Below, piece after piece: positions 28,844 through 44,022 of a DNA stretch of 55,166 nucleotides. The notes under the pieces were generated by a model. The model had not been told where the DNA came from. It ran no database searches and worked only from the letters and a program-made list of their open reading frames with translations. The stretch is from a virus (Duplodnaviria > Caudoviricetes), in the IMG/VR virus record IMGVR_UViG_3300030433_001688, positions 1 to 55,166 of that record; one strand, 5' to 3'. Each line of letters begins with the position of its first letter. Position 1 is the first letter of the stretch. The position numbers were made by a program, and so were the translations under genes.

Positions 28844-28870
28844 GTATGGGAATATATAAACAAAAAAATG

Positions 28871-30661
28871 TTAAAAATGTTCAAACTCCAGCTGTTTATC
28901 AACATCTTCTATGTTAATATGTTGATAGAGTGATGAAAAGGGACCTGTCATAGTAAATCCTGCGTGATTTGCATTGAAATCAAAGTAGAATGGATCGTCT
29001 ATTGCTGTTGGCTCACCACCAGTTTCTTGCTCTCTCACTTTGCGAACATGGAACTCTGTCCTACTACGCTTCTCTACGTCTGGATGATGTATCTTTCTGT
29101 GTATTGTTAAGAAGCAATCAGCTCTGTTAACCCACATGCCACCATACTCTGTGTCAGGAGCTAAAGGTGCAATAGGCTGACCATCGTCACCTTTTTGCCT
29201 TTGCGCTGAGGTTATCGAGTGTGCGTTTACCCATACAGCTATATCTAGTCTGTTACAAAACGTAAGGAACGCACCAGCAGCTTCGTAGTGGTACTCGAAA
29301 GCTGATCCCGACTTGTTTGATGTAAGGGCAACCTTGAGGGAGTTGTATGGATCTATAAGCAATCCATCTATCTTTCTATGCCTAGTTATCTTTTCAGTGT
29401 AAACAAGTAAGTCTGCATAGCTGAGCATCTTTGTGTTGTCTATCAAGATAAAATGCTTTGACACCCACTTCATCATATACTTTACCTCACCTTCAGTCAT
29501 TTCGTCTAGAGACTTACCACAAGCAAACTGCATTAGTTTAATCTTGACGTTAGCAGTTTTATTTTCAGAAGAATAAATAACCCACACCCACTCATGATTT
29601 ACTGCAATCGTAACCATCATGTACAGCATGAATGTGGTTTTACCTACAGAGCTATGACCTGAGATCATAACAAACTCTTTTTTGTAAATAAAGTTTTTAT
29701 CAAATAGAACATTACCTGTACCACACCCTTTCTCTATCTCTCCGTTTTTATATCTGATAATCCAGTCTAAATCCTCTACATCCGAACTCATAAACGACAT
29801 ATCGCCGTCTGATAGTAGTAACTCCCTTTGCGCTTCCTCCTCTGCCTCTATTGTTTCATGTATAGGCGCCATTTTACCACGCTCTATGCCGTCACGAATA
29901 GTATTCCTAGCGACGTACATATCGTCAACTTCACGAAGCTCTATTTCACGTTCTAAAACACGATACGCTTCAAGCTCATCTACCCTACCCACAGATATAT
30001 ATCCACCCATAAGTATAGAAGCTTTCAGGAGTACGTTGTGCTTTTCTCCATCAGGAGCGTTGCGTATCATCCTGGCTGCAAGGTGTAGCTTGGTGTAGTC
30101 TGTAGATATTTCCTTTACCTCAGCTACCTGAGTCTTAGGAATATCGTCAAAGAGCATCTTCCCAAAAGGCTCTGATTCTATCTTGATAACAGCATCAGGA
30201 TCATAGCTTTCAAAGCATGCCCTACTCTCATTGATACCTGTGCTATCAACCTCTAGATTGTATTTACTATCAAAGTATTGTACAAGAGCTCTGAAATGAT
30301 CTCTATGATTTTCTGAGTTTGTAACTTTTACAACAGCTTTTAACCCGTCACCAGAGGGACTAACCCAGCAGGCTTTGACAAAAGGATCTAAAGCAAGAAC
30401 AGCTTTGCTGTTGTCTACATCGATGTGATCGAAGTCAAGGACAATGTAGCCACTGTGTTTTATTAGTGAGGAGTCCTTGCGTTCATTGAACTTTCCGCTA
30501 AATAAAACGACAGGTAGCTTTGACTTTAAAGATTTGTTTCCACCTCTTATCTTTTCTATAGCATCTTTCTGCTTACCAGACTTTACTCTGTCTAGGCATT
30601 GCTCTAAAGAAATATAGTTAGGAGAGTCTTTGCTGTATAGATCACGATATATCGTCAGCAT
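28871..30661 (-). CDS. Primase-helicase: BT4734/VirE-N-like primase domain fused to a DnaB/RecA-type helicase
   Basis: KSKLPVVLFSGKF, LDFDH, SPSGDGLK, DSTG.NESRACFESYDP; Walker A GHSSVGKTT; Walker B LLIDPYN. Confidence 0.88.
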   Translation of the reverse strand: MLTIYRDLYSKDSPNYISLEQCLDRVKSGKQKDAIEKIRGGNKSLKSKLPVVLFSGKFNERKDSSLIKHSGYIVLDFDHIDVDNSKAVLALDPFVKACWVSPSGDGLKAVVKVTNSENHRDHFRALVQYFDSKYNLEVDSTGINESRACFESYDPDAVIKIESEPFGKMLFDDIPKTQVAEVKEISTDYTKLHLAARMIRNAPDGEKHNVLLKASILMGGYISVGRVDELEAYRVLEREIELREVDDMYVARNTIRDGIERGKMAPIHETIEAEEEAQRELLLSDGDMSFMSSDVEDLDWIIRYKNGEIEKGCGTGNVLFDKNFIYKKEFVMISGHSSVGKTTFMLYMMVTIAVNHEWVWVIYSSENKTANVKIKLMQFACGKSLDEMTEGEVKYMMKWVSKHFILIDNTKMLSYADLLVYTEKITRHRKIDGLLIDPYNSLKVALTSNKSGSAFEYHYEAAGAFLTFCNRLDIAVWVNAHSITSAQRQKGDDGQPIAPLAPDTEYGGMWVNRADCFLTIHRKIHHPDVEKRSRTEFHVRKVREQETGGEPTAIDDPFYFDFNANHAGFTMTGPFSSLYQHINIEDVDKQLEFEHF

Positions 30662-30998
30662 TTTGAGAGTCGTTCTTTTCTTTTAGACTTAATGCTGTTT
30701 GGTAACACACCCTATACAAAGGATGTGTCTTTAGGTTGTCTTCATGCTTATCAAACACATGATACATTGTTGTTCTAGCCATGTCCCATGTCTGTGCTAG
30801 CACATTCTGATGACAGTATGTTTTGAAAGCATTGATAAAAGCGTAACGCAAAAAAACAGACTCATGCTTACGTGTAGCTATATCATCTTGCATTTCTGCA
30901 GGAAAAACTAAATCGACATACTCTTTCTTCAAATGCTCAACAGCTTCAAAAGAATATCCTTTGTGCTTTGGCTTGCGCACTTTACTTAACTTTCTCAT
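30642..30998 (-). CDS. HTH DNA-binding protein (DnaA domain IV-like)
   Basis: TRKHESVFLR...LAQTWDMARTTMYH pattern; lies beside the helicase. Confidence 0.5.
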   Translation of the reverse strand: MRKLSKVRKPKHKGYSFEAVEHLKKEYVDLVFPAEMQDDIATRKHESVFLRYAFINAFKTYCHQNVLAQTWDMARTTMYHVFDKHEDNLKTHPLYRVCYQTALSLKEKNDSQNADDIS

Positions 30999-31750
30999 AT
31001 GTAAGATGTTTCATAATATGTTGTTGCCTTCACTCCACTATCTAAGTGTTCACGTATTCTAGCTACAGCAGTATCAAACTTCTGCTTCCCATATTCTAGT
31101 GTTTGATCAGAAGCGAAGTACAATCCTACTGCATATGGGTATGCCTTTTCTTGTGCTACCCACCTAAAATCTTTTATCCCTAAAACTTCTGTATAGATGT
31201 ATGCCTGTATATCGTAACCGAAGTCTCGCACAGCCCACTTAAACTTATCTAACTTCTGCGTGGTCTTTGAGTCAGCTATGTATTCGTCATTTAAAATATC
31301 TAGGAATCCACGTACAGGGACGTCCCCAATAAAGTCGTTAAACTCATATTGAGCATCGCCCTGTAGTGATATTTCGTGGACTCCAGTCTCTTGTAATCTC
31401 TGTATCATTTCCTCAGCCTTTACCTTGTCTTCAACAGAAACTATTTGTTTCCCTGGCTCGGCTAAAGAATCTTTCCATTCTGAGTAAGCTTTGGTCCTTT
31501 GTGGAGCTTTACCACCTATCTCTAAACAGATAGCTGTATCGTCTGCGACCACGAACTGATCGCTAAACGACTCAGGAGTGAGGAGCAGACAGTCGTATAG
31601 CTTACCAAAAGAAAGGGCTGGGCTTTCTATCTTGAGTTGATCCTTCATCTTCATCTCAAACAACTGCATGTCTTTTAATGCGTATTTTATCGACGAGTAA
31701 GAGAGGTATCCCTTCCCATATTTTTCTGATAATTTAAGGGCCAGATCCAT
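30995..31750 (-). CDS. RecE/exonuclease VIII-like PD-(D/E)xK exonuclease
   Basis: LSYSSIK, ALSFGKLYDCLLL.P, RGFLD, DSKTT and YDIQAYIY motifs; adjacent to ERF. Confidence 0.85.
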   Translation of the reverse strand: MDLALKLSEKYGKGYLSYSSIKYALKDMQLFEMKMKDQLKIESPALSFGKLYDCLLLTPESFSDQFVVADDTAICLEIGGKAPQRTKAYSEWKDSLAEPGKQIVSVEDKVKAEEMIQRLQETGVHEISLQGDAQYEFNDFIGDVPVRGFLDILNDEYIADSKTTQKLDKFKWAVRDFGYDIQAYIYTEVLGIKDFRWVAQEKAYPYAVGLYFASDQTLEYGKQKFDTAVARIREHLDSGVKATTYYETSYI

Positions 31751-32319
31751 TACTTAATTACTTCAGCAAGATTACCTAATACCTTTAACTTTTTAACTTG
31801 ATCTTTTGTAAGCTCAGATTCATACTTACCTAGTATAAGCTTTACTGCAGACGCCTTGTCTTTAGAATTGTTGACGTGAGCTAAGCTCATTTCAAAAATG
31901 CTTTTTTCAGGAGCTTTCTTTTTAGCTGGAGTACCAGCGCCTGTGTTTGTAGCGTCACTGTCTTTTGTATCATCAATACAGAACAGTCCGTTGAGTGCAT
32001 ACTTTCTTGCATAACTAGACGATGCTCCTGTTACCTGGCTACCGTCCATACCTTTTTTGCTTTCCTCCTCCCTAGCGAAAGCTGTGGTTTGTACCTCAGA
32101 CTGACCGTCAGTAATACTAGCTGTAGCCTTGACGTATACCCTGTCACCAAGCATTACCATTTCGTCTGACAATGTTAGAATCAGACCATGTTCTGATAGT
32201 AAAGGTTTTACAGATTCTAAAATGTCCTCAGCAGATCTGTATTTGTATCCACCGAACTTGTTCATTTGCCCCTTCGGAGCTTTGAGGTTGCCTTGAATAA
32301 GACTTAGTTTATCTACCAT
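31750..32319 (-). CDS. erf: ERF-family single-strand annealing protein
   Basis: KAPKGQMNKFGGYKYRSAEDILESVKPLL and QVTGASSSYARKYALNGLFCIDDTKDSD. Confidence 0.93.
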   Translation of the reverse strand: MVDKLSLIQGNLKAPKGQMNKFGGYKYRSAEDILESVKPLLSEHGLILTLSDEMVMLGDRVYVKATASITDGQSEVQTTAFAREEESKKGMDGSQVTGASSSYARKYALNGLFCIDDTKDSDATNTGAGTPAKKKAPEKSIFEMSLAHVNNSKDKASAVKLILGKYESELTKDQVKKLKVLGNLAEVIK

Positions 32320-32346
32320 GATTTATTATATTAAATTAAAAATTAG

Positions 32347-32421
32347 ACTCCTGCGTAGGATTCGAACCTACACTCTCGGAAAACCAATTAAACACGAGCC
32401 CATCCCAGTGGGTAGCAGGAG
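32347..32421 (-). ncRNA. tRNA-like RNA with a non-canonical 16-nt loop in place of the anticodon loop
   Basis: Minus strand: CTCCTGC TA CCCA-CTGGGA-TGGG CTCG-TGTTTAATTGGTTTTC-CGAG AGT GTAGG-TTCGAAT-CCTAC GCAGGAG T. Perfect 7-bp acceptor stem, U8, D arm with GG, perfect T arm; no encoded CCA. Confidence 0.85.
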
Positions 32422-32445
32422 GTGTGCGGCACAAGGCCGCATAAA

Positions 32446-32739
32446 TTAGAACGGTAAGTCAGCAGTTTCTGTTTCTGTTTCTACCTCTTCTTGCTTTTCA
32501 GCAGTAGTGATGGTTCCGTCAGTCCAGATAACTTTTGCATTACCTACATAATTTTTAGGTGTCTTTGCTTCACGCTCTTCTTTTGTTTGTGAGCAGAAGA
32601 TGCTGCAGTTGTCACCGAATTGTCCCGTCTCATCGTTCACTGAAATAGTGAAGTCATAGTACGTTCCGTTTTTGCCTTTGATAAGTTTTTCTTTTGGCAG
32701 TTTGTTCAAATTAATTGAACCTTTGATTAATGATCCCAT
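32446..32739 (-). CDS. Putative single-stranded DNA-binding protein
   Basis: Short OB-like beta protein with acidic tail ending ADLPF; upstream of ERF. Confidence 0.7.
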   Translation of the reverse strand: MGSLIKGSINLNKLPKEKLIKGKNGTYYDFTISVNDETGQFGDNCSIFCSQTKEEREAKTPKNYVGNAKVIWTDGTITTAEKQEEVETETETADLPF

Positions 32740-32749
32740 AGTTTTAAAT

Positions 32750-32977
32750 TTAAAGGGTTTGAATTAATAGTTGATATTGTTTTCTAAATGCTGGTCTGTG
32801 ATCCATAGCTCTATCTGTCATTATCCAATGCAGAAACAAAGGATCTCTATGTACTTCAATAGCTTTAGATACATCAATAAAGCTCATGTCCTTGTGCTTA
32901 GCTAAGTATGCTATAGCCAAGCGCAATGCTTCGTCACCAGTAGCACCAGTGATTCTTGTTACTTCCTCTACTATCAT
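32750..32977 (-). CDS. Hypothetical protein
   Basis: 75 aa; ATGA-coupled in the - strand operon. Confidence 0.7.
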   Translation of the reverse strand: MIVEEVTRITGATGDEALRLAIAYLAKHKDMSFIDVSKAIEVHRDPLFLHWIMTDRAMDHRPAFRKQYQLLIQTL

Positions 32978-33120
32978 GACATTTTATTTATAGTGTTTTT
33001 AAATTCTTTCATAGCTTTTTTCTGTAGATACTTTCTGTATTGGTAGTCATCGTCAATGTGATCACGATGCTCCCCAAAATCTTCAATATCCTTGATAAAT
33101 ACCTCTTTTATTTTTCCCAT
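32974..33120 (-). CDS. Hypothetical protein
   Basis: Likely start MGKIKEVF at 33120; IDDDYQY motif. Confidence 0.6.
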   Translation of the reverse strand: MGKIKEVFIKDIEDFGEHRDHIDDDYQYRKYLQKKAMKEFKNTINKMS

Positions 33121-33165
33121 AGCGTTGACAAATATATGTGTTACAAACTTTAATTGCAACCATTG

Positions 33166-33378
33166 TTAATAATTTTCAAAGTCATCTTCGGCTAGCTCCT
33201 GCATATAACTGCGGAAGTTATTATCATCTAGCAGAAATGACATTGAGTGTTTTTCTTTACCGCTTCTGTAGTACAGCCAATCAAGATCAACACTACGACC
33301 TTCAGGGTAATCGACTACATAGTAAACCAGTGTGGCTTCTACACCACAACCTAGTTCAAAATCAACTTCTCGTTTCAT
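33166..33378 (-). CDS. Hypothetical protein
   Basis: 70 aa, acidic; A-rich leader. Confidence 0.7.
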   Translation of the reverse strand: MKREVDFELGCGVEATLVYYVVDYPEGRSVDLDWLYYRSGKEKHSMSFLLDDNNFRSYMQELAEDDFENY

Positions 33379-33413
33379 ATTTATTTTATTTTTTTATATT
33401 ATGCAATCTTTTA

Positions 33414-33857
33414 TTAGAAAACGTTATACTCTCCAGCAACTGGACAGGTACGCTTGCCGTCTGAATCTATATCCATCAACATCTCTCTTATGTCAGCACG
33501 ATCGTTTGCAGTTAAAGTTCTGTTTCTGTCGCAAACCTTTCTCATTAGTTTAATCATATTTGGAACTTGTGATATAATATAAGATAGCTTTCCAGCTCTT
33601 TTCCTATCACCATAAACTTCGCATATATTTCTGTTTAATTCTTTATTAAAAATATAATGCTTTCTATGACCACGAGTGGACTTAGGCAATCTTGAACCAC
33701 CACCTAAACTTCTCCCCCCCTCTCTATATGTTATAGTCCAAGTTTGTTGTTCTATGTTTTCGTCTTTAAGTTGTTGCATGTGTGCTTTAAGTTCATTTAC
33801 TTTTTGTTGAGCTTCTCTTAAAGCTATCTCTACTTGTCTGTAATTATTGTTTTTCAT
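33414..33857 (-). CDS. Hypothetical protein
   Basis: 147 aa with N-terminal coiled coil. Confidence 0.7.
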   Translation of the reverse strand: MKNNNYRQVEIALREAQQKVNELKAHMQQLKDENIEQQTWTITYREGGRSLGGGSRLPKSTRGHRKHYIFNKELNRNICEVYGDRKRAGKLSYIISQVPNMIKLMRKVCDRNRTLTANDRADIREMLMDIDSDGKRTCPVAGEYNVF

Positions 33858-34116
33858 CGTTACATCCTTTAATAAATTCTACTACTTCATTGTAAACGCT
33901 ATCCATGTAGGGTAGACTCCAAATGATTACGGAGAAGTCATCTTCATGCTTAGCAACTTCGAAACACTTCTGTACTACTGGCATTAACCAATCCCATGAT
34001 GTGTGGTATTGTAGGTTCTGAACTATCTCATTTGAAGGTAGTTCGTACTCACTATACCCATCGTGCATTATCTCATGCACCCCCATAAATTCTGCTATTA
34101 ATTTATTGTCTTTCAT
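33844..34116 (-). CDS. Conserved Bacteroidota phage hypothetical protein
   Basis: NKLIAEFMG...YHTSWDWLMPVV motif; start at 34116 preferred, with 34164 as an alternative that has its own AAACCAA leader. Confidence 0.75.
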   Translation of the reverse strand: MKDNKLIAEFMGVHEIMHDGYSEYELPSNEIVQNLQYHTSWDWLMPVVQKCFEVAKHEDDFSVIIWSLPYMDSVYNEVVEFIKGCNDEKQ

Positions 34117-34261
34117 TTTGTTTTGGTTTAATTGGTTCATCCAAATCCATTCTTTTTTTATCATCTTGTTTTGGTTTAAACACTACTGTTGGTAGTGGCA
34201 TTGCAATTAATCCAGCTAATTCGTCCATGCTGAATCCTGATTGTGTTTTTCGTTTACTCAT
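34103..34261 (-). CDS. 52-aa hypothetical protein (not in ORF track)
   Basis: MSKRKTQSGFSMDELAGLIAMPLPTVVFKPKQDDKKRMDLDEPIKPKQNERQ*; AAACCAATAAA leader. Confidence 0.55.
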   Translation of the reverse strand: MSKRKTQSGFSMDELAGLIAMPLPTVVFKPKQDDKKRMDLDEPIKPKQNERQ

Positions 34262-34262
34262 T

Positions 34263-34595
34263 TTATTGGTTTATTATAAGTTCTTCTATAAATATTTTTA
34301 CACAGCTTTCATCGCCTTGATAGTATAATGCATCATCTACTTCTGTGAAGATTTCTTTAATCCTATCGTCACCTTTTGCTTCATTGACAGCACGTTGATA
34401 CTCTTGCAAAGCGTTTGCATATTCTGTAAATAGTTTTTGTTCTGAATAGTCTAATAGTGAGTCCATTACGTGGACGGCATACACCTTTCTACACTCTTGT
34501 TTGGCACGTAGTTCTGTTATCAGTTTGCCTTGTGCTTCGATTGTTTTAAATAGTTCGTTGTTTGACATTTCGTTATATCTTTTTAGTAAATTCAT
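34263..34595 (-). CDS. Hypothetical early protein
   Basis: 110 aa in a tightly packed - strand array. Confidence 0.7.
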   Translation of the reverse strand: MNLLKRYNEMSNNELFKTIEAQGKLITELRAKQECRKVYAVHVMDSLLDYSEQKLFTEYANALQEYQRAVNEAKGDDRIKEIFTEVDDALYYQGDESCVKIFIEELIINQ

Positions 34596-34600
34596 CGTGT

Positions 34601-34798
34601 TTATATTAATAATAAGTCATCAACATAGTCGGGTTCTAATCCGAATTCGCTTAACAAGTAATCTTCTATATCCCATAGCGTCAGGTCTCCCGATGTCAAA
34701 CCTTGCGTTACAAAGTCTCTTGCTTCAGATACCATATGTTCTGCTGTTTCAGGTGATATGCAATCACGTTGAATTAGTACGTCTTTAATTCTTCTCAT
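34601..34798 (-). CDS. Conserved phage hypothetical protein
   Basis: IKDVLIQRD..S...A and EFGLEPDY motifs. Confidence 0.75.
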   Translation of the reverse strand: MRRIKDVLIQRDCISPETAEHMVSEARDFVTQGLTSGDLTLWDIEDYLLSEFGLEPDYVDDLLLI

Positions 34799-34803
34799 CG
34801 TAT

Positions 34804-35070
34804 TTAGTATTCTAGTTCAATTAATTTCCCATCTACCTCTTCGTATCTTAGGTCTGTAGGGCATTCCCATTGCGTCCAATAGTATTCATCTTGTTGGTAG
34901 CTTTCAGCTAAGATGTACTCGTCAGATAGTTCGTTATCAACATCAACATTCCAAGAACGTATCAGTGCTATTAAGTCTTTCTCGTACTTAATGTGCATAA
35001 ATCCATCGCCTACTACATAGCCATCATTCATGCCTTCGCCAGTTATATCACATCGTCTTGCGTATTTCAT
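34804..35070 (-). CDS. Conserved phage hypothetical protein
   Basis: ARRCDITGEGMNDGY...YYWTQWE motif. Confidence 0.75.
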   Translation of the reverse strand: MKYARRCDITGEGMNDGYVVGDGFMHIKYEKDLIALIRSWNVDVDNELSDEYILAESYQQDEYYWTQWECPTDLRYEEVDGKLIELEY

Positions 35071-35097
35071 GTTTATTGGTTTTATATTTTCTAATAG

Positions 35098-35214
35098 TTT
35101 AGTGCATTACTAGTTAATAATGTTGAGGGTAGATAACACGCCATATAGCTATCTATTACTCGATTGGTTTCGCCTAATCAAAACCCTCAAACATTTATTT
35201 AGTGCATTACTAGT
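35098..35214. repeat. 17-bp direct repeat flanking an 83-bp structured element
   Basis: TTTAGTGCATTACTAGT at 35098-35114 and 35198-35214, exactly 100 bp apart. Confidence 0.9.
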
Positions 35215-35807
35215 CCTACTTTATTTGTTGGATTATACCACTTTGTGGCGTTAAGGTCGCTTTCCATGGCGTTTACATACCCAGCATTTTCTAAATCCTC
35301 ATAGCTGTCGAAGATTCGTGCATGACGATCTGTTGCGTAGTCTATCATGTCATCTCGTGTGCCGCCTTCGCTGAATATGATATCGTAGTTGTCAGGAATA
35401 TCAACACCAATAAATAGAGGGATAGACTTCGTATAAGAGTAGAACTTTACACCTGGCAACCTTTTGGCTATTTCTATCCACTTAGCTAAGTATTCTTTCG
35501 AATAGTAATCGCCTGAATCATGAACCCTGAGTATATCTACTTTCTTTTTCTTTATTTCTGCAATCATATCATCTATGAAGTTGTTTGACTTAGTAGCTAG
35601 ATATCTAAACTGGAAAGCTGGTTTGACATTGCTCCAAGAGTATGCACCTTTCTGAGCATAGCAAAACTTTGCACAGCTCCCTGCAAATGGACAGGTGCGC
35701 TTACCGTTCTCATCTTCAAAGGCAGGTATCCCGAAGTTGAATACTCGCAGTCCGATTAACTTGCTAGTCTTTTTTAGTTTACTGTTTTGTGTTATTAAAT
35801 GCGGCAT
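35199..35807 (-). CDS. GP88-like (radical-SAM-related, Cys-cluster) phage protein
   Basis: NSKLKKT, FGIPA, TCPFAGSCAKFCYA.KG, RVHDSGDYYS and FYSYTK motifs. Confidence 0.8.
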   Translation of the reverse strand: MPHLITQNSKLKKTSKLIGLRVFNFGIPAFEDENGKRTCPFAGSCAKFCYAQKGAYSWSNVKPAFQFRYLATKSNNFIDDMIAEIKKKKVDILRVHDSGDYYSKEYLAKWIEIAKRLPGVKFYSYTKSIPLFIGVDIPDNYDIIFSEGGTRDDMIDYATDRHARIFDSYEDLENAGYVNAMESDLNATKWYNPTNKVGLVMH

Positions 35808-35991
35808 CTTTCAATTGGTTTATTATCGGTTCATTTTTATATCCGTATGCAGATATCTCTCCTTTATTAAATTTTCTTACAAGCTGTTTATACACTTTAG
35901 TTCTAGTTGGAGATTTACAATCCTTAATTGCGTGTATATATTCTATTGAATACTTATCGTTTAGTTTGTAATAAAAAGTAGTTCTAAACAT
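35779..35991 (-). CDS. Hypothetical early protein
   Basis: 70 aa; fills the gap in the array. Confidence 0.6.
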   Translation of the reverse strand: MFRTTFYYKLNDKYSIEYIHAIKDCKSPTRTKVYKQLVRKFNKGEISAYGYKNEPIINQLKDAAFNNTKQ

Positions 35992-36139
35992 TTGATTTAT
36001 ATTTTACTGGTTGAATTACTACGTCATCGTAACCTTTTTCTTGCCATTCGAATTGTTCTATAATCGCATCGTGAAAGCAATCAAATTCGTTACATACTCC
36101 TCCTATCCACACTAAGTATTTTATTCCTTGTGATTTCAT
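35984..36139 (-). CDS. 51-aa hypothetical protein (not in ORF track)
   Basis: MKSQGIKYLVWIGGVCNEF...EWQEKGYDDVVIQPVKYKSNV*. Confidence 0.7.
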   Translation of the reverse strand: MKSQGIKYLVWIGGVCNEFDCFHDAIIEQFEWQEKGYDDVVIQPVKYKSNV

Positions 36140-36150
36140 GTTAGTATGCT

Positions 36151-36324
36151 TTATTGATTGTTTTCTAAATTGTCATACTGTTTAGCTAGGTATTCGATTT
36201 CTTCAGCGTGTATGGCTACACTTAGGTACTCCGATACGTCAATGTAAAGTTTGCCGTCTAGCTCTTCACTAGGCGTTTCGTGGTGTACTTCAAGTACGAA
36301 TGAGGCTTTTTCTAATTGTGTCAT
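36151..36324 (-). CDS. Hypothetical early protein
   Basis: Start MTQLEKAS at 36324 with AAAACCAAT leader. Confidence 0.65.
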   Translation of the reverse strand: MTQLEKASFVLEVHHETPSEELDGKLYIDVSEYLSVAIHAEEIEYLAKQYDNLENNQ

Positions 36325-36504
36325 GGGGAATATTGGTTTTATTAAAAATAGCAAGACTTAGCACAGTATCGTGTACTCCTTGCACTCTGCTCCAAGTTTC
36401 CGTCCGCTTGTGCGTTCGCCTTGCTATTTCGTTACCATACGCAAGAGCATAGTAAGATAATTATAACTAAAAGTGTCATTTCTACAACGCTTGGTTTGTT
36501 GACA

Positions 36505-36609
36505 TTATTGTACATCATCAAAATTGATTAGGTCGAACTCTACTCCCATATCTAAGAGCGCCTGTTGCAGTGCTAAATCTTGCACGTTTGGTAATTGGTT
36601 TTTACTCAT
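36505..36609 (-). CDS. 34-aa acidic peptide downstream of the hammerhead
   Basis: MSKNQLPNVQDLALQQALLDMGVEFDLINFDDVQ*; A-rich leader. Confidence 0.55.
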   Translation of the reverse strand: MSKNQLPNVQDLALQQALLDMGVEFDLINFDDVQ

Positions 36610-36631
36610 AATTGAAAAGGTTTTATTTATT

Positions 36632-36762
36632 AACATAGACTACCCTAGGCGAATACGTTCAGATTTTTTTTACACGTTGGGCAAACAGGGATACAAGTGA
36701 TATGTTTGCTTGTGCTTACTCGCTTCGGGTAGTTTCGACTAATCAAGTCTCGTCAGTATGCT
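36632..36762 (-). ncRNA. Hammerhead ribozyme (type I topology, large insert in stem III)
   Basis: Minus strand: AGCATA-CTGACGA-GACT(TGATT)AGTC-GAAA-CTACCC...GGGTAG-TC^TATGTT. All core nucleotides are present; predicted GUC cleavage between 36638 and 36637. Confidence 0.9.
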
Positions 36763-36867
36763 TATTTGTTTATACTCAAGTACCATTGTAACAACGGTAG
36801 TTTCTGCTGAAGTAGTATATTCCAGACAATTTGCGGAGTTTGCTTAAGGATATCATGAAAAAGGGTT

Positions 36868-36978
36868 TTTATTTATTTATTAAAATAGTTGTTTTATTAG
36901 ACGTACTTTTTCTGCGTCTGTTAATTCATCGCTATCTAGTATGTTGATTAGGTAGCATTCAAATTCTTCTGAATTCAT
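36868..36978 (-). CDS. 36-aa hypothetical peptide
   Basis: MNSEEFECYLINILDSDELTDAEKVRLIKTTILINK*. Confidence 0.5.
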
Positions 36979-37080
36979 AATCTTTATAAAAATTTATGGC
37001 ACGGCTTTGCACCGTGTCCGTTGTTATCGTGTGGTCTCCACTAGCCAATGTATTTAAATTGGCTCGTATGTTGTCGGCGC

Positions 37081-37272
37081 TTACGCTCTCGCTCTGCGTC
37101 TGTTGTTGCGTTGTTCATCTGCTCGCTCGATGCGGTCAGATATCGCTTCAACTTTGCGGTTGGTTGATGCCGTTGCCCTGTTAGACTTTTGCCCCTTGGT
37201 ACTGCCGTAAGTCTTGTTTGAGTACTCACGCCTGTAACGTTTGTCGTGTAGTATAGTATCTAAAACTCTCAT
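37081..37272 (-). CDS. Small Arg-rich early protein
   Basis: Start MRVLDTIL at 37272 overlaps the upstream stop (ATGA). Confidence 0.6.
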   Translation of the reverse strand: MRVLDTILHDKRYRREYSNKTYGSTKGQKSNRATASTNRKVEAISDRIERADEQRNNRRRARA

Positions 37273-37484
37273 TTCTTTGATTTTATTGTTGGCTTGAAAC
37301 GATTCCAATTCCACTCCTCAAGTAGGTTTTCAGCTGATTGTAACGCCAGAGAGTAATCTGCACAAGGCTCGGGCAACTCTAAAATCACTTTACCTAATGT
37401 AGTAGATATTCCGTAAAACTTACTACCGCTTTGGATTGCATCAGCTATTTGACGTACATAGTGCGCTTGTTGAATTGTATTCAT
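37269..37484 (-). CDS. First gene of the leftward early transcript, hypothetical
   Basis: Start MNTIQQAH at 37484, downstream of the promoter at 37516-37547. Confidence 0.65.
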   Translation of the reverse strand: MNTIQQAHYVRQIADAIQSGSKFYGISTTLGKVILELPEPCADYSLALQSAENLLEEWNWNRFKPTIKSKK

Positions 37485-37515
37485 AATTGAAATTGTTTTG
37501 GTTTGAATTCTGGTA

Positions 37516-37557
37516 CTAATATACACTAGTCACTTCGATAAATGCAAGTTTTATCGA
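37516..37557 (-). promoter_or_regulatory. Early leftward promoter with overlapping inverted repeat
   Basis: TTG-N21-TATATTAG on the minus strand; TCGATAAA-N7-TTTATCGA (37535-37557) straddles the -33 element. Confidence 0.6.
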
Positions 37558-38018
37558 CACTTTAACAGTATTTTAACATTTAAGGCGATATATAGACAAT
37601 TGACGTTAATAGATGTTAATGCCCTTGCATATGTCAAAAAAAAATTGTATAAGTTGGCAAATGCAAAGAGTTGTTAAATAGTTGCAGAAGTCGTAAATGT
37701 TTTGTATAGCGTACCCCGTCGGGGGTTCCTTGGTACGTTGCCTGTGTTCGGAGTGGGGATTGTCACAAACTTTTTTGCGTTTGCGTTTGTTAACAGAATA
37801 AACTTGCATAAGTTGCTGTAAAATTGTATAGGCAAAAAGCTGAAATTTTTTGCAGGTTGTCAGCAATGTAAAAGGCGGTGGGGTTGCAGATGCGTTTGGG
37901 TTTGCGTGCGTCAACGGCTGTATGTATGTATAATCCCCAGGATCTGTATAGCTCAGATTTTTTTTAACACTTAGGAGGCGGTGTTTTCACTAAATTTGCA
38001 TATACTAATTCAATAGAT

Positions 38019-38096
38019 ATGACAGCTTTAATTGTATTTTCTGTTTACGCAATATTTATCATAGGTATGACGTTGTGGTGCAGAGAAGAATCGTAG
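38019..38096 (+). CDS. 25-aa single-TM peptide
   Basis: MTALIVFSVYAIFIIGMTLWCREES*; TAAATTTG at 37991-37998 upstream and a terminator downstream. Confidence 0.55.
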   Translation: MTALIVFSVYAIFIIGMTLWCREES

Positions 38097-38140
38097 TGGA
38101 GGCACCTAAAACGTGCCGACCACGTAGATTCTTTTTTTTT
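38086..38140 (+). terminator. Long imperfect hairpin with T tract
   Basis: AAGAATC..GTGG.GGCAC-loop-GTGCC..CCAC..GATTCTT running into a T9 tract. Confidence 0.7.
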
Positions 38141-38144
38141 GGGC

Positions 38145-38175
38145 TTGACTTTTTAAATTTTTTGTAGTAACTTTG
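38145..38175 (+). promoter_or_regulatory. Complete Bacteroidota sigma70-type promoter
   Basis: TTG(ACT)-N20-TAACTTTG; canonical spacing. Confidence 0.8.
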
Positions 38176-38179
38176 CTAC

Positions 38180-38330
38180 GACTTTAGTCACAACCATACG
38201 GCCAAAGGTCTTGAGGACTTTGACCTGGGTTGTTCAGAGGGAGGTTGCGTAAGTAACTTACAGGTCCTCCTACTACCGATTAGAGTCTACTATTACTTGT
38301 CTAGTATATGATAAGTAGTGACTAGGGCTA
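38180..38330 (+). ncRNA. Candidate structured ncRNA or leader (multi-branch)
   Basis: Closing stem CTTTAGTCAC/GTGACTAGGG enclosing three hairpins; directly after the promoter; no ORF. Confidence 0.55.
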
Positions 38331-38354
38331 GCTATATACTTAAATTAAATACAT

Positions 38355-38633
38355 ATGAATAAATACTTACTAGAGATCCTAGAAGACAATGAATGCCTTG
38401 TCGCCACTGGATTTGATGAAGCCATCATAGGTTTCAGTTATGGGTTAGAAACTAGAGCTGTCTACGATGTAGATCAGGTTTTAGATATCCTTCAAAGAGA
38501 TGATGGGATGACTCGTGAAGATGCCATGGAGCATTTTGATTACAACATTGCTGGGAGTTATGTAGGACCAAAGACACCGATCTTTGTTTACTGCACTGAT
38601 CCAGCATATACAATAGAGGGTAGCGATGAGTGA
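38355..38633 (+). CDS. Conserved phage hypothetical protein
   Basis: GFDEAIIG...AVYD...DAMEHFDYNIAGSYVG.KTP motif. Confidence 0.8.
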   Translation: MNKYLLEILEDNECLVATGFDEAIIGFSYGLETRAVYDVDQVLDILQRDDGMTREDAMEHFDYNIAGSYVGPKTPIFVYCTDPAYTIEGSDE

Positions 38634-38877
38634 TCAAGAATTTAAACCACTCGACCTTCTGCCAAAGGAGGACATTAAGATTGTGTTAAAGCAACACAGC
38701 AAAAGACAACTACTTGAAAAGGCTCTCTTATGGGAGATGCTTGCAAAGGAATACAAAAAACAATTAGAAAACCTTCAGAAGGATCAAGCATCTATAGATA
38801 AAGAGCGTGTTGAAGAATTTTTTAAATTAAATAAAGATGAGTTACAAAACGAACAAGACGACAAAAAAAAAGATTGA
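38626..38877 (+). CDS. Hypothetical coiled-coil protein
   Basis: 83 aa; overlapping operon arrangement. Confidence 0.7.
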   Translation: MSDQEFKPLDLLPKEDIKIVLKQHSKRQLLEKALLWEMLAKEYKKQLENLQKDQASIDKERVEEFFKLNKDELQNEQDDKKKD

Positions 38878-39040
38878 TTCTTTGCTTTCTAAGAATGCAT
38901 CATACCAGGCAGCTAATGTTTGTGTGACAAACTCTAAGACAAAAAGGAAAGAGATCAATAGATATTGTAGGGTAAACTTTATAAACCCTATAAAAGATAT
39001 CGACGAAGAATTTTACTCACGTATTAAAGAATCATACTAA
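38837..39040 (+). CDS. Hypothetical protein
   Basis: 67 aa, basic; coupled to the next gene. Confidence 0.6.
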   Translation: MSYKTNKTTKKKIDSLLSKNASYQAANVCVTNSKTKRKEINRYCRVNFINPIKDIDEEFYSRIKESY

Positions 39041-39360
39041 TGTCAGGAATCAAACCAAAAAGTATTAAGGATACTATTTCTGCTCTTCGCAACGGAAAGA
39101 GAGTGCGCCATATAGATCTTCAGACGTCATACTTAAATATGAATGACACTGAGAGAAAGCTTCTAAAGTCACTAGTACAAAATAGAAGGAGGGAGCTGTT
39201 GCTTTTATTTGCAGAAACTAACACTAACTCATTATGGAGGCAGATCTCTTTACTCGATAAGTTTATGTATCTCTTTACAAAAAATGAAGTGTATAATATA
39301 AATGAATATTTTACCATTCATGGTGATTACGTGTCTGGTCATATCTATTCTCCACAATAA
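39040..39360 (+). CDS. Hypothetical protein
   Basis: 106 aa; TAATG coupling. Confidence 0.7.
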   Translation: MSGIKPKSIKDTISALRNGKRVRHIDLQTSYLNMNDTERKLLKSLVQNRRRELLLLFAETNTNSLWRQISLLDKFMYLFTKNEVYNINEYFTIHGDYVSGHIYSPQ

Positions 39361-39371
39361 AATTATATCAT

Positions 39372-39379
39372 TATATTTG
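39372..39379 (+). promoter_or_regulatory. TATATTTG promoter
   Basis: 4 nt before GTG 39384. Confidence 0.65.
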
Positions 39380-39383
39380 CGAT

Positions 39384-39857
39384 GTGGGTAAAAGAAAACA
39401 ACCATATCGACTAGGTTTCCCTGAAAGATATTTTACACAGGGTGATGATAGTGCTGGTTCTGATGAAACACACGCAAGAAAAATGAGAGCACGAAAAAAA
39501 GCATACGAAGAGGGTAGAAAGATAGACCTAAAAAAGGTAGCCAAGCTAGGCATGAAGGTAAGTAAGTCTCCTGCACAGCAGGCAGCTATAGCTATTTCTA
39601 AAAAAGAAAAGGCTGGGGAGATGAAGAAGGGCGGTAAAGTTTCACGTAAAGCTTTAAGTGCTTCAGTAAAGAAAACTTTAAGAGCTAAAGCTAAAAAGTC
39701 AGGTAAATCATACGGTACTTTAGCAAAAGTATACCGCAGGGGCCAAGGAGCTTGGATGTCTGGCGGTAGCAGAAAAGGTATACCTATGGCTGCTTGGGCT
39801 ATGGGTAGAGTGAATAGCTTTATTCGAGGATCTAAAAAACACGATACAGACCTATAA
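39384..39857 (+). CDS. Basic viral protein (DUF5824-like C-terminus, from recall)
   Basis: KAKKSG...L.KVYRRGQGAW..GSR......WAMGRVNSF motif. Confidence 0.7.
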   Translation: MGKRKQPYRLGFPERYFTQGDDSAGSDETHARKMRARKKAYEEGRKIDLKKVAKLGMKVSKSPAQQAAIAISKKEKAGEMKKGGKVSRKALSASVKKTLRAKAKKSGKSYGTLAKVYRRGQGAWMSGGSRKGIPMAAWAMGRVNSFIRGSKKHDTDL

Positions 39858-39858
39858 T

Positions 39859-41070
39859 ATGAAACACGGAAAATTAATGCCAGGTGGTGGACACCTAAAA
39901 ATGCCAGGTGGAGGACGTCTTTACGAGATTTTGAAAAAAGGCGGTAAGCTAAAGATGGTAAAAAATGATAAGGGTGAAATGGTTCCCTTTTATGCTGCAG
40001 ACGGTATTGGAAAGATGGAGTACGGAGGTAAGACTATGGGACATGGAGGTATGATGGAGGATGGTCCTATGCTTGTTATCAAACTAGGTAAGGATGGTAT
40101 GAAGTATATGCAAGAGGGAGGTAAAAATGAAGACGAAGGGTTTGGTGAAAACGATCCGTTTGAAGGAAGAGCTAAAGGTACTAGAGATAACGAGTTAGTG
40201 AATGATGACGGAAAGACTATGTTTAACTCAGGGATTGAAGGTTTTAATCCTAAAACATTAGGAGAATTTTCAAATAGATTTTTTGTTCGTGATAATAATG
40301 AAGAGGGCAGCACAGACGGTCGATTTGATGCAGCTGTAAAGCTTGATGACGGCAGAATCGTACCTATATCCAAAGAACAGTTTCTTTTTATGAATGAACA
40401 ATTCAGAAGTAATGATTACGGTAAGACTATGGAAGCAGGATCTCCTGAGCCTCAAAAAAGAAATCTTATGTTTTATTTACCTGAATTTAATCCTAACTAT
40501 GACGAGTCTGGAACTGAAATAACAAGTAGAGAGTCTAGAAATTTAGGTAAATTTAATAGAAGGTTTGATAAAGAACTTGATCAATTTTATGATACTGAAG
40601 CGTTTGATGTAAGAGCTGCGGCAATGGCGACAGATGAAGAGAAAGAAAGGCTAAACCTTCCACTAAGCGGAGGTGAAGAAAAGCTACAAAAAGAACTAGC
40701 CATAAATGCTAACTTAAACCCACTTAAAAGACAAGAGGCTCATCGGCTTGGACAAAATTTTGCTGCTAAAACATTTTTTGAAGGATCAGGAGATGCTAAA
40801 GGTATAGAAGCTGTACAGGGCAAAGCTACTAGATTTAGATCGCAAATAGAAGGAACTGGAGAAGAAAAAGATAAAGAAGTAGAAACATCTGGTGCAGGTA
40901 TGGATACTCCAGGAATGCAACGTATTCAAGCTCCTGATTTTAGTACACCAATCCCAAGTTCATTAAGACAAGAGACTGCATCAGCGATGAATTTTGGGGG
41001 TAGACTTCGTATGGCTAATCAAGGGGCAAAGATGGCTAGACGTACTGTATTTAGATTTCCAAGATCATAA
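39859..41070 (+). CDS. Hypothetical protein with MxxGG repeats
   Basis: Multiple MPGGG, MEYGG, MGHGG, MQEGG and MNFGG motifs; VPFYAADG.GKM. Confidence 0.75.
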   Translation: MKHGKLMPGGGHLKMPGGGRLYEILKKGGKLKMVKNDKGEMVPFYAADGIGKMEYGGKTMGHGGMMEDGPMLVIKLGKDGMKYMQEGGKNEDEGFGENDPFEGRAKGTRDNELVNDDGKTMFNSGIEGFNPKTLGEFSNRFFVRDNNEEGSTDGRFDAAVKLDDGRIVPISKEQFLFMNEQFRSNDYGKTMEAGSPEPQKRNLMFYLPEFNPNYDESGTEITSRESRNLGKFNRRFDKELDQFYDTEAFDVRAAAMATDEEKERLNLPLSGGEEKLQKELAINANLNPLKRQEAHRLGQNFAAKTFFEGSGDAKGIEAVQGKATRFRSQIEGTGEEKDKEVETSGAGMDTPGMQRIQAPDFSTPIPSSLRQETASAMNFGGRLRMANQGAKMARRTVFRFPRS

Positions 41071-41074
41071 TAAA

Positions 41075-41099
41075 AAAAGAGGGGTATAACCCCTCTTTT
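41075..41099. terminator. Bidirectional intrinsic terminator
   Basis: AAAAGAGGGGT-ata-ACCCCTCTTTT between convergent genes. Confidence 0.85.
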
Positions 41100-41103
41100 A
41101 TAT

Positions 41104-41580
41104 TTATAAAGTTGTGTAAGTAAAGTAAGCGTTTTCATCTAAAATTTGAAAACTTCTTGTTGTTTCAAGCACTCCGTCTTTATTGATTTTTGTTTTACCA
41201 TTGTCTTTGTATGTATTTACCCAATCATCGCTAATTACCAAGGTAGTGGCAATATTCATAGGAGTTTCGTCATACATGTGACCTTCTATTAAATATACTC
41301 CTGGTCTGTCAAAGTAAACTTTCATCTGTCTCTCTCCGTATTTGATCTTGTAAAGACCTAGCTGGATATCTTCATCACTTAAATCTGGTTTAGCAAAAAA
41401 ACTTCGTACGCTATCTAAATCATTTGCATCGACTGTAGATAATTTCCATATCCATACCTCATCAGGTACTACACCACCTTTCTCGATATTGATGTACTGA
41501 ATAAATGGTTCTGATAAAAATTCTTGACAGAAAAGTGTGCCGCTAAATACTAGGGCGAGTGTTAAAAATAAATTCTTCAT
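41104..41580 (-). CDS. Secreted protein (moron-like, opposite strand)
   Basis: Signal peptide MKNLFLTLALVFSGTLFC/Q; candidate promoter TTG-N21-TATACTTG at 41638-41607; own terminator. Confidence 0.75.
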   Translation of the reverse strand: MKNLFLTLALVFSGTLFCQEFLSEPFIQYINIEKGGVVPDEVWIWKLSTVDANDLDSVRSFFAKPDLSDEDIQLGLYKIKYGERQMKVYFDRPGVYLIEGHMYDETPMNIATTLVISDDWVNTYKDNGKTKINKDGVLETTRSFQILDENAYFTYTTL

Positions 41581-41664
41581 AGCTTTTATATATTTGTTGT
41601 TTGATTCAAGTATATAATTTTTATTCGATACAAGTCAAGTTTTTTCAACTTTTTAACAAATAAC

Positions 41665-41964
41665 ATGAGGGCAGGTAAGAAGCGTGATCCAAAAGTAGGT
41701 ACGGGTAAAAAGCCTAAAGGCTCCGATAGACGCTTGTATACAGACGAAAACCCCAAGGATACAGTAGGTATTAAGTTTGCTACAGTACAAGATGCAAAGG
41801 ATACAGTAGCTAAGGTGATGCGCATCAATAAACCGTTTGCTAGAAAGATACAGATACTTACAGTAGGAGAACAAAGATCTAGATATTCTAAGCCTAAGAA
41901 AGTAAAGCAGATGAATATATTTAAAAAAGCAAAAGAAGCGTTACGCAAAAAACACAACAAATGA
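41665..41964 (+). CDS. Basic conserved hypothetical protein
   Basis: GTGKKPKGSDRRLYTDENPKDTV.IKFAT motif; TATATTTG at 41589-41596 upstream. Confidence 0.75.
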   Translation: MRAGKKRDPKVGTGKKPKGSDRRLYTDENPKDTVGIKFATVQDAKDTVAKVMRINKPFARKIQILTVGEQRSRYSKPKKVKQMNIFKKAKEALRKKHNK

Positions 41965-42164
41965 GATACGGTAAAAAAAGAAAACTAAAGGAAGGTGGTA
42001 AGCTAACCATGACAAACAAAAGTGTTAAGGTAGATCCACCAAAGGGATATCACTGGATGGAAGAGTCAGGAAGATTCTACCTTATGGAGGGAGAGTACCA
42101 ACCACATGACGGAGCTGTAGAAAGAGCTAAGTTCACAGTTGTAACTCACCCAAAAGCTAAATAA
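41961..42164 (+). CDS. Small hypothetical protein
   Basis: LKEGG motif; PPKGYHWM. Confidence 0.7.
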   Translation: MRYGKKRKLKEGGKLTMTNKSVKVDPPKGYHWMEESGRFYLMEGEYQPHDGAVERAKFTVVTHPKAK

Positions 42165-42588
42165 CAATCTGCTCTAAACCTTCTAGTTTTCTGTAAAACT
42201 TTTGTATCGTTAGTCTAGCACGTTGTGTTATAGTGTATCTATTTTTATAGTTTTTCCTTTCGTGGAATAGAGCTTCAGAAAAAGACATCTCGTTGACTTT
42301 AGTTCTGTCGAAGGCTTTTTCTATCCACCCACGTTTCTGTAAAGGATATAGAACTTTTTGTTTGAACTTACGTGGGCTCTGATATAATGCATCAGCCATA
42401 TGGTCGGCTGTAAAAAACTCGTAGTCGTACATAAATATTAAGACGTTGATTTCGTTCATGGTAAGATCTGTACTGTTAGATATGTCACGTATAGCGTGCT
42501 TATAGTACTTCATATAGTTCTTCCCGACATACCTATCATTAAGATAACTGAACTCTCGTATCTTACGTCCTTTATGATATCTACTCAT
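42157..42588 (-). CDS. Winged-helix (MarR-like) DNA-binding protein
   Basis: DLTMNEINVLIFMY...LYPLQKRGWIEK...YTITQRA; start MSRYHK at 42588, divergent from the promoter at 42594. Confidence 0.65.
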   Translation of the reverse strand: MSRYHKGRKIREFSYLNDRYVGKNYMKYYKHAIRDISNSTDLTMNEINVLIFMYDYEFFTADHMADALYQSPRKFKQKVLYPLQKRGWIEKAFDRTKVNEMSFSEALFHERKNYKNRYTITQRARLTIQKFYRKLEGLEQIVI

Positions 42589-42593
42589 TTGAT

Positions 42594-42601
42594 TATATTT
42601 G
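42594..42601 (+). promoter_or_regulatory. TATATTTG promoter of the packaging operon
   Basis: 16 nt before ATG 42618. Confidence 0.7.
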
Positions 42602-42617
42602 CTGTAAAAATAAGAAC

Positions 42618-43490
42618 ATGGGAACTCTTTCTGGAAATGCAATAAAAAATACTTATCAGGGTTTGCTGAAGACCTCTGATGCAGCTGCTTTAACATCCTC
42701 GTTAAAGGTTATAGAAGACGGTACTGGAGTAGATAGCGCCTTATCACTTTCTACCACTAGCGTCAAAGCAGAGTCTTTACAAATAAATACTGTAGCTGAT
42801 GGATCATCTAGCACTGTTCTTGTTTGGGATAGCTCTAGTAAAACAGTTTCCAAAAGAGCCCTCCCAATATTTGATCCCATAACAGCAACTGTTTCAGGTG
42901 CAACAAACCCTACTTTAAGAATATCTGATAGTGCAAGCAATAGCTCTTCATTTATATTTTTTGGAGGAACAGGAATAGAAGTTTCACAAGCTACTAATAC
43001 AATAACGTTTTCTTCTAAAAACCAAACAACCAACACTATTACAGGGGCAACTACTTTAACAGCTGCTGATTCTGGTAAGGTTCATCTTCTAGATGCAAAT
43101 GCAATTAATGGTGATACAATAACATTACCTTCATGCGCAGATGGATTATACTTTAAGTTTTTATTTATTACAACAAAAGGAACAGAGTTTAATATCGTTA
43201 CAGCCAATGCTGCAGCATCGGGAACAGTAGAAAGATTTATAGGTAAGGTTGTTGTTCAGAGCACCACTGATGATCAAATAGCTGTTCAGCGTGTAACAAA
43301 TACAGGTAATACATTTGACAACGATACGTTGTCTCTTGATGGAGATTCTGCAACAAGTGGTGGAATGGAAGGTGATATAATAGAAATTTATGGGTGTACT
43401 ATTTCTAGTGTAGCGACATGGGTTGTTGATGCAAGACTAACTACAACAAATGCTAACCCATCTAGTATTGCAGTAATAGGTGCTTCATAA
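42618..43490 (+). CDS. Putative virion fibre/decoration protein
   Basis: Thr/Ser/Gly-rich; N-terminal IKNTYQGLLKT...IEDG.G..SAL.LS; TLTAADSG...ITLP...GLYFKF domain. Confidence 0.6.
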   Translation: MGTLSGNAIKNTYQGLLKTSDAAALTSSLKVIEDGTGVDSALSLSTTSVKAESLQINTVADGSSSTVLVWDSSSKTVSKRALPIFDPITATVSGATNPTLRISDSASNSSSFIFFGGTGIEVSQATNTITFSSKNQTTNTITGATTLTAADSGKVHLLDANAINGDTITLPSCADGLYFKFLFITTKGTEFNIVTANAAASGTVERFIGKVVVQSTTDDQIAVQRVTNTGNTFDNDTLSLDGDSATSGGMEGDIIEIYGCTISSVATWVVDARLTTTNANPSSIAVIGAS

Positions 43491-43768: not shown

Positions 43769-43780
43769 AATTAATTACAT

Positions 43781-44020: not shown

Positions 44021-44022
44021 AG

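Follow-up and report, generated by a model that had tools for sequence, protein, structure and literature searches.

A type I hammerhead ribozyme with an 81-nt folded stem III extension in the replication and recombination gene block of a phage

Hammerhead ribozymes have been known since 2011 to occur between phage genes and, to our knowledge, the biological role of these intergenic elements is still unproven. Members of this class cut RNA after position 17. The accessible text of Perreault et al. (2011; PMC3088659) describes polycistronic prophage transcripts in which genes are flanked by hammerheads, and the in vitro cleavage of fragments of about 2 kb from three of these RNAs. In the accessible portions of that paper and of a review (PMC6765202), the flanking ribozymes are thought to process the polycistronic RNAs of prophages.

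The window analyzed here, i.e. the whole 55,166-bp stretch of DNA of one IMG/VR record, carries a hammerhead that shares its core, its type I topology, its intergenic site and a 6-bp stem I with these phage and prophage type I hammerheads (Perreault et al. 2011, PMC3088659; Rfam families RF00163, Hammerhead_1, and RF03152, RAGATH-1-hammerhead). Its stem II, GACU/AGUC closed by a loop of 5 nt, is common to dozens of phage hammerheads from IMG/VR. It is the only hammerhead of its genome, whereas tandem sets are found in some phages (L037, L025, L044 and L052). What is unusual in the window is a long, conserved and folded extension of stem III. Judging from the sequence, this element is likely a functional type I hammerhead involved in ordinary processing of phage mRNA, whose long stem III would provide the upstream fragment with a folded 3′ end.

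The length of stem III was surveyed in the IMG/VR matches listed (at least 120 stretches) to the stem II hairpin that is commonest in the class, together with the loci at hand. This gave 124 pattern instances, five of them without a complete hammerhead according to the strict rule; the remainder corresponded to 77 distinct hammerheads among the matches listed. The span from A15.1 to U16.1 is 10 to 29 nt in 70 and 38 to 65 nt in seven of these 77, so that, among the matches listed, about 9% of one common phage class have a stem III span of at least 38 nt. These long stems (65 nt in L037, 56 nt in L118, 44-45 nt in L095, L103, L162 and L180, and 38 nt in L098) are structured extensions on otherwise canonical hammerheads and have unrelated sequences; a long stem III recurs in a minority of the class. 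Their insert sequences are shorter than that of the window and unrelated to it. With spans of 93 nt in the window, 92 nt in L058 and 93 nt in L065 (two other phage contigs described below), the stem III of this ribozyme is the longest among the hammerheads compared, but is not different in kind.

Two other systems are worth comparing. Engineered aptazymes, which are artificial, contain an aptamer attached to one of the hammerhead stems and have ligand control designed in. They share with the window ribozyme an extra folded domain on a core-adjacent stem, but neither a ligand nor a switch is indicated in the window. The discontinuous hammerhead of the 3′ UTR of mammalian Clec2 genes, as presented in the accessible part of a review (PMC6765202), is likewise natural, with halves parted by a long insertion; it differs by being eukaryotic, by an insert that spans several hundred nucleotides and is devoid of a compact conserved fold and by its role in 3′-UTR regulation. 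The literature search, which covered subscription papers incompletely, returned no description of a hammerhead from a Flavobacteriia phage nor of the 81-nt insert.

Anatomy and covariation of the ribozyme

The ribozyme is a complete type I hammerhead of 131 nt located on the minus strand (36762-36632), with every defining sequence feature present. Scans of IMG/VR, JGI metagenomes and GTDB genomes revealed two further variants of the insert-bearing ribozyme, both on IMG/VR contigs (L058 and L065); metagenome contigs L062-L064 are identical to L058 inside the ribozyme. The parts of the window ribozyme are as follows, read from the sequence unless another basis is given.

36757-36762, minus strand: 5′ strand of stem I, AGCAUA (positions 2.6-2.1), pairing with 36637-36632
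36750-36756, minus strand: core strand CUGACGA (C3 to A9)
36737-36749, minus strand: stem II hairpin GACU-UGAUU-AGUC, with closing pair G10.1-C11.1
36733-36736, minus strand: core GAAA (G12, A13, A14 and A15.1), the same in all three variants
36727-36732, minus strand: 5′ strand CUACCC of the stem III base (P3a), pairing with 36645-36640, the same in the three variants
36646-36726, minus strand: stem III insert, 81 nt (RNAalifold and covariation)
36723-36717 with 36655-36649, minus strand: P3b, GCGAGUA/UAUUCGC, 7 bp (RNAalifold; two compensatory and two one-sided changes)
36715-36712 with 36675-36672, minus strand: P3c, GCAC/GUGU, 4 bp, predicted (RNAalifold; invariant)
36709-36703 with 36687-36681, minus strand: P3d, GCAAACA/UGUUUGC, 7 bp (RNAalifold; one compensatory change)
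36702-36688, minus strand: terminal loop, 15 nt in the window and 15-16 nt across variants
36671-36656, minus strand: A-rich unpaired strand, 16 nt; A(7-8)UCUGAA(C/G)G in the variants
36640-36645, minus strand: 3′ strand GGGUAG of P3a
36638-36639, minus strand: U16.1 (36639) and C17 (36638); predicted cut after 36638
36632-36637, minus strand: 3′ strand of stem I, UAUGUU (positions 1.1-1.6); predicted 5′-OH end of the downstream RNA

Three helices surround the core; II and III are closed by loops and stem I is open. G12-A13-A14, the A15.1-U16.1 pair and a nucleotide other than G at position 17 (C17) are all present. The core-adjacent pairs are Watson-Crick in all three stems (G10.1-C11.1, U1.1-A2.1 and A15.1-U16.1); Watson-Crick pairing at 10.1-11.1, 1.1-2.1 and 15.1-16.1 is the acceptance rule for hammerheads given in the accessible text of Perreault et al. 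(2011; PMC3088659). An earlier reading made from the sequence alone had placed a complete hammerhead core on the coding strand, and the sequence agrees with every coordinate and helix that it named. It is known that fast natural hammerheads require a tertiary contact between stem I and loop II. A covarying contact that would join loop II to stem I or its flanks was sought in the three variants and none was definable; loop II (UGAUU, CGAUU or UGAAU depending on the variant) and the A-rich flanks of stem I are similar to those of canonical members of the class.

The variants were retrieved by several patterns. A 21-mer of the insert loop is found in IMG/VR in L058 only, and in three metagenome contigs. 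The pattern with fixed stems retrieved only L058, the one with a fixed stem III base only L058 and L065, and the search with a 20-mer of the A-rich strand L058 and L065. A loop-flank pattern matched six stretches; four of these (L066-L069) were considered as additional copies and rejected, being matches due to chance inside unrelated sequence.

The alignment therefore consists of three distinct sequences (window, L058 and L065), with about 89% identity per column. The only change in the core concerns N7, which is C in the window and U in L058 and L065 (CUGAUGA); this position is left free by the hammerhead consensus. All 105 pair cells (35 pairs in three variants) are standard pairs and none is broken. 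Compensatory changes affect five pairs in four of the six helices (one in stem I, one in stem II, two in P3b and one in P3d). For example, the outermost pair of stem I is A-U in the window and G-C in L058 and L065, and the fourth pair of stem II changes from U-A to C-G in L065. Both one-sided changes of P3b proceed via G-U, and these G-U intermediates point to RNA pairing rather than to a DNA palindrome. None of 500 column shuffles reached the observed values for paired cells, two-sided changes or covariation score, although the number of pair types is no better than in shuffles (7 versus 7). When the partners were slid by one to three columns, 21-41% of the cells remained paired. RNAalifold independently retrieved exactly the same 35 pairs. 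P3a and P3c are neither supported nor contradicted by covariation since they are invariant in the three sequences. Taken together, the intact core and the compensatory changes in four helices show selection for a folded, presumably active RNA.

The insert is an unbranched rod which comprises, starting from its base, P3a, a 3x3 internal loop, P3b, a 1x16 loop, P3c, a 2x5 loop, P3d and the terminal loop. The structured insert of about 80 nt proposed from the sequence alone is thus borne out with a length of 81 nt: both helices that had been named are found, and two of the three inner helices covary. The joints between helices differ among copies (GAA/AAC; CUA/AGA/CAA; AA/AC/AU); in L065, the terminal loop also differs in its middle. 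Little change is seen in the A-rich strand or at either end of the terminal loop (UAUCAC...CCC), a constancy that is non-significant with three sequences according to a rough estimate. This analysis suggests that the insert extends stem III as a lineage-specific rod of three extra helices, on which catalysis would not depend.

Several other contents of the insert were searched for. Rfam detected neither a known motif nor an aptamer in it. No sigma-70-type promoter was found on the minus strand of 36632-36762, and no terminator on the minus strand of the insert. The motif TAnnTTTG, which we take to be the -7 box of Bacteroidota, is not enriched across the window (55 occurrences for 62.6 expected). 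A coding function (33-codon ORF with a TTG start, 36645-36746) was rejected because the length of the A-run varies between variants, which shifts the frame. A pseudoknot of 4 bp between GAUU of loop II and AAUC of the insert is possible in the window and in L058 but was rejected since it is lost without compensation in L065 (GAAU). A BLAST search for a second copy of the insert in the window and in loci L002-L072 retrieved only its own homologues, besides a 14-nt identity at 37966-37953.

Gene context and distribution of the module

According to CheckV, the 55,166-bp IMG/VR record is 100% complete. DNA of the window is present in marine metagenome runs; the 19 runs listed include no RNA run. 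A tblastn search with its primase-helicase retrieved 51 phage records, all with less than 60% identity, 42 of which are phages of Flavobacteriia hosts; the best match is Maribacter phage Panino (33%). The source is an uncultivated marine phage, probably with a Flavobacteriia host. Among the cultured phages of INPHARED, no DNA match was obtained for 36400-37000 in distant mode nor for 30000-45000 in near mode. The pattern scans of GTDB genomes for the ribozyme or its insert found nothing, and therefore provided neither a prophage copy nor a host link.

From 28385 to 37526, every credible gene, as deduced from ORFs and family matches, is on the minus strand. This block includes genes encoding an ERF recombinase, a PDDEXK nuclease (DUF3799), a primase-helicase and a GP88-family protein; because of this gene content and of the common orientation, it is presumed to be an early operon. 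The ribozyme is located in an intergenic gap between small genes of this leftward replication and recombination block. These small neighbors matched no Pfam or PHROG family. The reading frames on either side are:

36505-36609, minus strand: downstream small gene encoding 34 aa (MSKNQLPNV...), whose start is 28 nt past the predicted cut; no PHROG family match
36776-36856, minus strand: possible ORF of 26 codons (MISLSKLRKLSGIYYFSRNYRCYNGT) just 5′ of the ribozyme, below the cut-off of the ORF list

The second one is preceded by an AAAACC-TTTT motif, as are neighboring starts. More generally, AAAACC(C)UUUU(U/C)-N(1-4)-AUG is found in place of a Shine-Dalgarno sequence before small early genes of the window (36610-36625 and 36857-36870), and the same start motif is found in the related contig L003 (2725-2745 and 2855-2875). 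A weak use of Shine-Dalgarno sequences is consistent with a Bacteroidota host.

Upstream of the block, 828 bp (37527-38354) without any credible gene separate the divergent minus-strand (up to 37526) and plus-strand (from 38355) blocks. A part of this stretch, 37964-37888, is conserved in L009 and L002. The sequence GUGUUAAAAAAAAUCUGAGC located there includes the 14 nt that are identical to the A-rich strand of the insert (37966-37953; BLAST E = 0.13), an identity that is probably due to chance. No Rfam match was obtained for this gene-free region (37500-38400).

The comparison of the three variants shows that the homology between the window and L058 or L065 has its start no more than about 3 nt from stem I and its end just past the ribozyme, the flanking genes being different. 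The edges of the module are the edges of the ribozyme in four gene contexts: the window, L058/L062/L064, L063 and L065. In L058, stem I is overlapped by the stop codon of a gene encoding a 141-aa protein, and the small gene located downstream is a different one. In L063 and L065, the ribozyme immediately precedes a homologue of the window gene 36151-36324; L063 thus combines the upstream side of L058 with the downstream gene of L065. In L065, the ribozyme abuts what remains (10 codons, MALLEKADHD*) of a gene present at full length in L058. Among DNA contigs from four marine runs, some cover only 36629/30-36763/65, with 11-15 differences, and others join the flanks of the window to other sequence at 36625, 36633 or 36765.

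A separate observation concerns L065, minus strand, 1745-1790. About 40 nt 5′ of the ribozyme lies AAAUAAAGCAUACUAAC, which is similar to the 5′ edge of the window ribozyme (AAAUAAGCAUACUGAC), with the MALLEKADHD* remnant in between. This resemblance and the remnant may be a recombination scar.

Close relatives differ at this place. In L003, the GP88 protein is 98% identical and the flanks are about 90% identical, and the ribozyme is absent at the equivalent spot. Two other small ORFs replace the 26-codon ORF and the ribozyme of the window, and a near-identical counterpart of gene 36505-36609 is present without any hammerhead before it. A covariance model (R1, see below) applied to five related phage records found exactly one hammerhead in four of them and none in the fifth, a complete record (L004). 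L002, the closest complete relative, whose GP88 protein is 95% identical, carries its hammerhead at 1614-1670 (plus strand), upstream of the homologue of 36151-36324 and of GP88. The stem III of this ribozyme, CUACCCC-UUCG-GGGGUAG, is the base of that of the window without insert, and there is an extra U between A9 and G10.1 (CUGAUGA-U-GGCU). L009 also carries a short-stem hammerhead with a UUCG cap, located upstream of the GP88-family gene in the same early operon. The stem I and stem II sequences of the short-stem hammerheads of L002 and L009 differ from those of the window (GUUACU/AGUAAC and GGCU/AGCC). Since the ribozyme is missing from complete genomes of close relatives, at this spot in L003 and entirely in L004, its function is dispensable. 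From these comparisons, the ribozyme seems to behave as a self-contained accessory module that would be gained, lost and recombined across within this phage group.

Such a pattern could also be expected from a selfish or neutral passenger, i.e. a 131-nt module spread by recombination that is harmless or provides shared homology for gene shuffling. The coincidence of module and ribozyme edges in the four contexts, the mosaic structure of L063, the remnant of L065 and the variable presence of the ribozyme among near relatives and among contigs of one sampling series are all in line with it. However, the intact core and the compensation in four helices indicate selection for the fold, whereas a homology patch would need neither. 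Furthermore, the module has no transposase, integrase or repeat beside it, and mosaic joints at gene boundaries are common in phages. We therefore regard the passenger explanation as unlikely.

Predicted processing of the early message and proposed role of the extension

The reading that we favor is ordinary mRNA processing by a functional hammerhead. Once the polymerase has passed 36632, the three-way junction would fold and the RNA would cut itself after C17 (36638), which would split the polycistronic message in two. The upstream fragment would end with a 2′,3′-cyclic phosphate right behind the long and stable stem III, and the downstream fragment would start with a 5′-OH at 36637, with the next start codon 28 nt downstream. 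This predicted 5′ end and its distance to the ATG at 36609 are those deduced in the sequence-only reading. Stability or translation could then differ between both fragments. We infer that the insert most likely stabilizes stem III and would thereby give the upstream fragment a folded, nuclease-resistant 3′ end. The motif, the fold, the covariation, the module boundaries and the pattern of presence and absence are shown here; transcription, cleavage and the effect on RNA stability are predicted.

The release of a separate insert-bearing RNA had also been suggested. As the window contains a single hammerhead, a single cut would free no small RNA: with one cut site per genome, the insert is not releasable and remains attached to the upstream fragment at its 3′ end, where the long rod could slow 3′ exonucleases.

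Another explanation is that the ribozyme is allosteric, the insert sensing a small molecule, a protein of phage or host or another RNA and gating stem III and the core, so that the processing of the early message would be conditional. The structure of the insert is kept in the three variants, its 16-nt A-rich strand and the ends of its terminal loop show little change, and the insert closes the cleavage-site helix, which is the helix on which engineered aptazymes carry their aptamers. However, the absence of a known aptamer according to Rfam, the free variation of the helix joints and of the loop middle in L065 and the rough estimate that the constancy of the A-rich strand is non-significant with three sequences argue against this explanation, as does the unbranched rod fold, which has no junction pocket. 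In addition, P3a, which has seven pairs with A15.1-U16.1 counted and four G-C pairs among them, is expected to form in the absence of the insert, as in L002 where it is capped by UUCG, and no alternative pairing that competes with the core was found, the sole one tried (GAUU of loop II with AAUC of the insert) being lost in L065. The allosteric explanation thus appears very unlikely, and the more specific proposal that the stem III domain is a natural sensor of a phage or host protein or a metabolite, gating the cleavage helix and timing the processing of the phage early message, equally so.

For the favored reading, i.e. mRNA processing, this phage group offers a natural comparison of three forms in one operon: hammerheads with the 81-nt extension (window, L058 and L065), a hammerhead with a UUCG cap (L002) and no hammerhead (L003 at this spot and L004). 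This set could show whether cutting alters the stability or the translation of the small early genes and whether the long stem III protects the upstream fragment.

Model searches, chance expectation and other phage hammerheads

The search with the Rfam hammerhead models, which the sequence-only reading had proposed as a check, failed: there was no match on the window at the gathering score, and the E-value mode gave only a partial match of Hammerhead_3 to the core and stem II (16.6 bits for a gathering score of 48.5; E = 1.4). At the gathering score, Rfam did not detect the hammerheads of 19 related loci either, tRNA being its sole match, and the canonical short-stem hammerhead of L009 reaches 23 bits versus a gathering score of 56.3 for RAGATH-1-hammerhead. 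Since this canonical ribozyme also fails and no Rfam model spans an 81-nt insert in loop III, the failure on the window tells little. The gathering threshold is a criterion of curated annotation and not a feature of the biochemical class. Standard Rfam models thus miss hammerheads with large loop III inserts.

The R1 covariance model, for which 23 short-stem hammerheads of phages (type I) were used, served to search eight sources (110,416 bases). Its best match in the window is the ribozyme (25.0 bits, E = 3.2e-5), the second best having an E-value of 0.61. The alignment is correct in the 5′ half only (stem I strand, core, stem II and GAAAC), and the 3′ half is wrongly placed inside the insert, because the model cannot span it. 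The unconstrained minimum free energy fold of 36775-36620 recovers the three-way junction and the helices of the insert (-30.5 kcal/mol; z = -2.40), and three of 200 shuffled sequences fold as well.

The full descriptor combined the core, stem I of at least 5 bp, stem II of at least 4 bp, stem III of at least 5 bp and a stem III span of up to about 120 nt. On both strands of the window, it retrieved exactly one site. It matched once in 300 dinucleotide-shuffled windows, and looser settings gave no match in 100. A chance motif or a dead relic, i.e. coincidental words and helices or a hammerhead that has lost cleavage, is extremely unlikely: the Rfam scores below threshold, the AT-rich region and the 10 occurrences of the loose core pattern (CUGAnGA, 8-30 nt, GAAA) in the window for 3.5 expected would fit with it, but all three stems are found at only one of these 10 sites, shuffled windows rarely reproduce them, and the element is conserved and covaries in two other phages with a core that differs at N7 alone.

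The searches also provided observations on other phage hammerheads. Some IMG/VR phages (L037, L025/L042, L044, L051 and L052) carry three or four type I hammerheads that flank single small genes, spaced by between a few hundred bases and about 2 kb and with a stem I that is near-identical within one phage. Tandem arrangements of the same sort are described in the accessible text of Perreault et al. (2011; PMC3088659). In L118 (minus strand, core start at 9257 of the reverse-complement strand), a sequence of about 19 nt (GCAUGAGUCCGCAAAUUGC) occurs twice, as a direct repeat, in the 56-nt stem III span.

Hammerheads were also observed next to tRNA genes. In the array of nine tRNAs of L060, tRNA-Tyr (8735-8819) begins about 14 nt past the end of a hammerhead-type core (CUGACGAG...CGAAAC; core and tRNA-Tyr at 8696-8819, plus strand). 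In L041 (279-544, plus strand) and in L050, a short-stem hammerhead is followed by tRNA-Pro and tRNA-Leu within about 60 nt. These arrangements in L060 and in L041/L050 may correspond to a ribozyme-assisted processing of tRNA 5′ ends.
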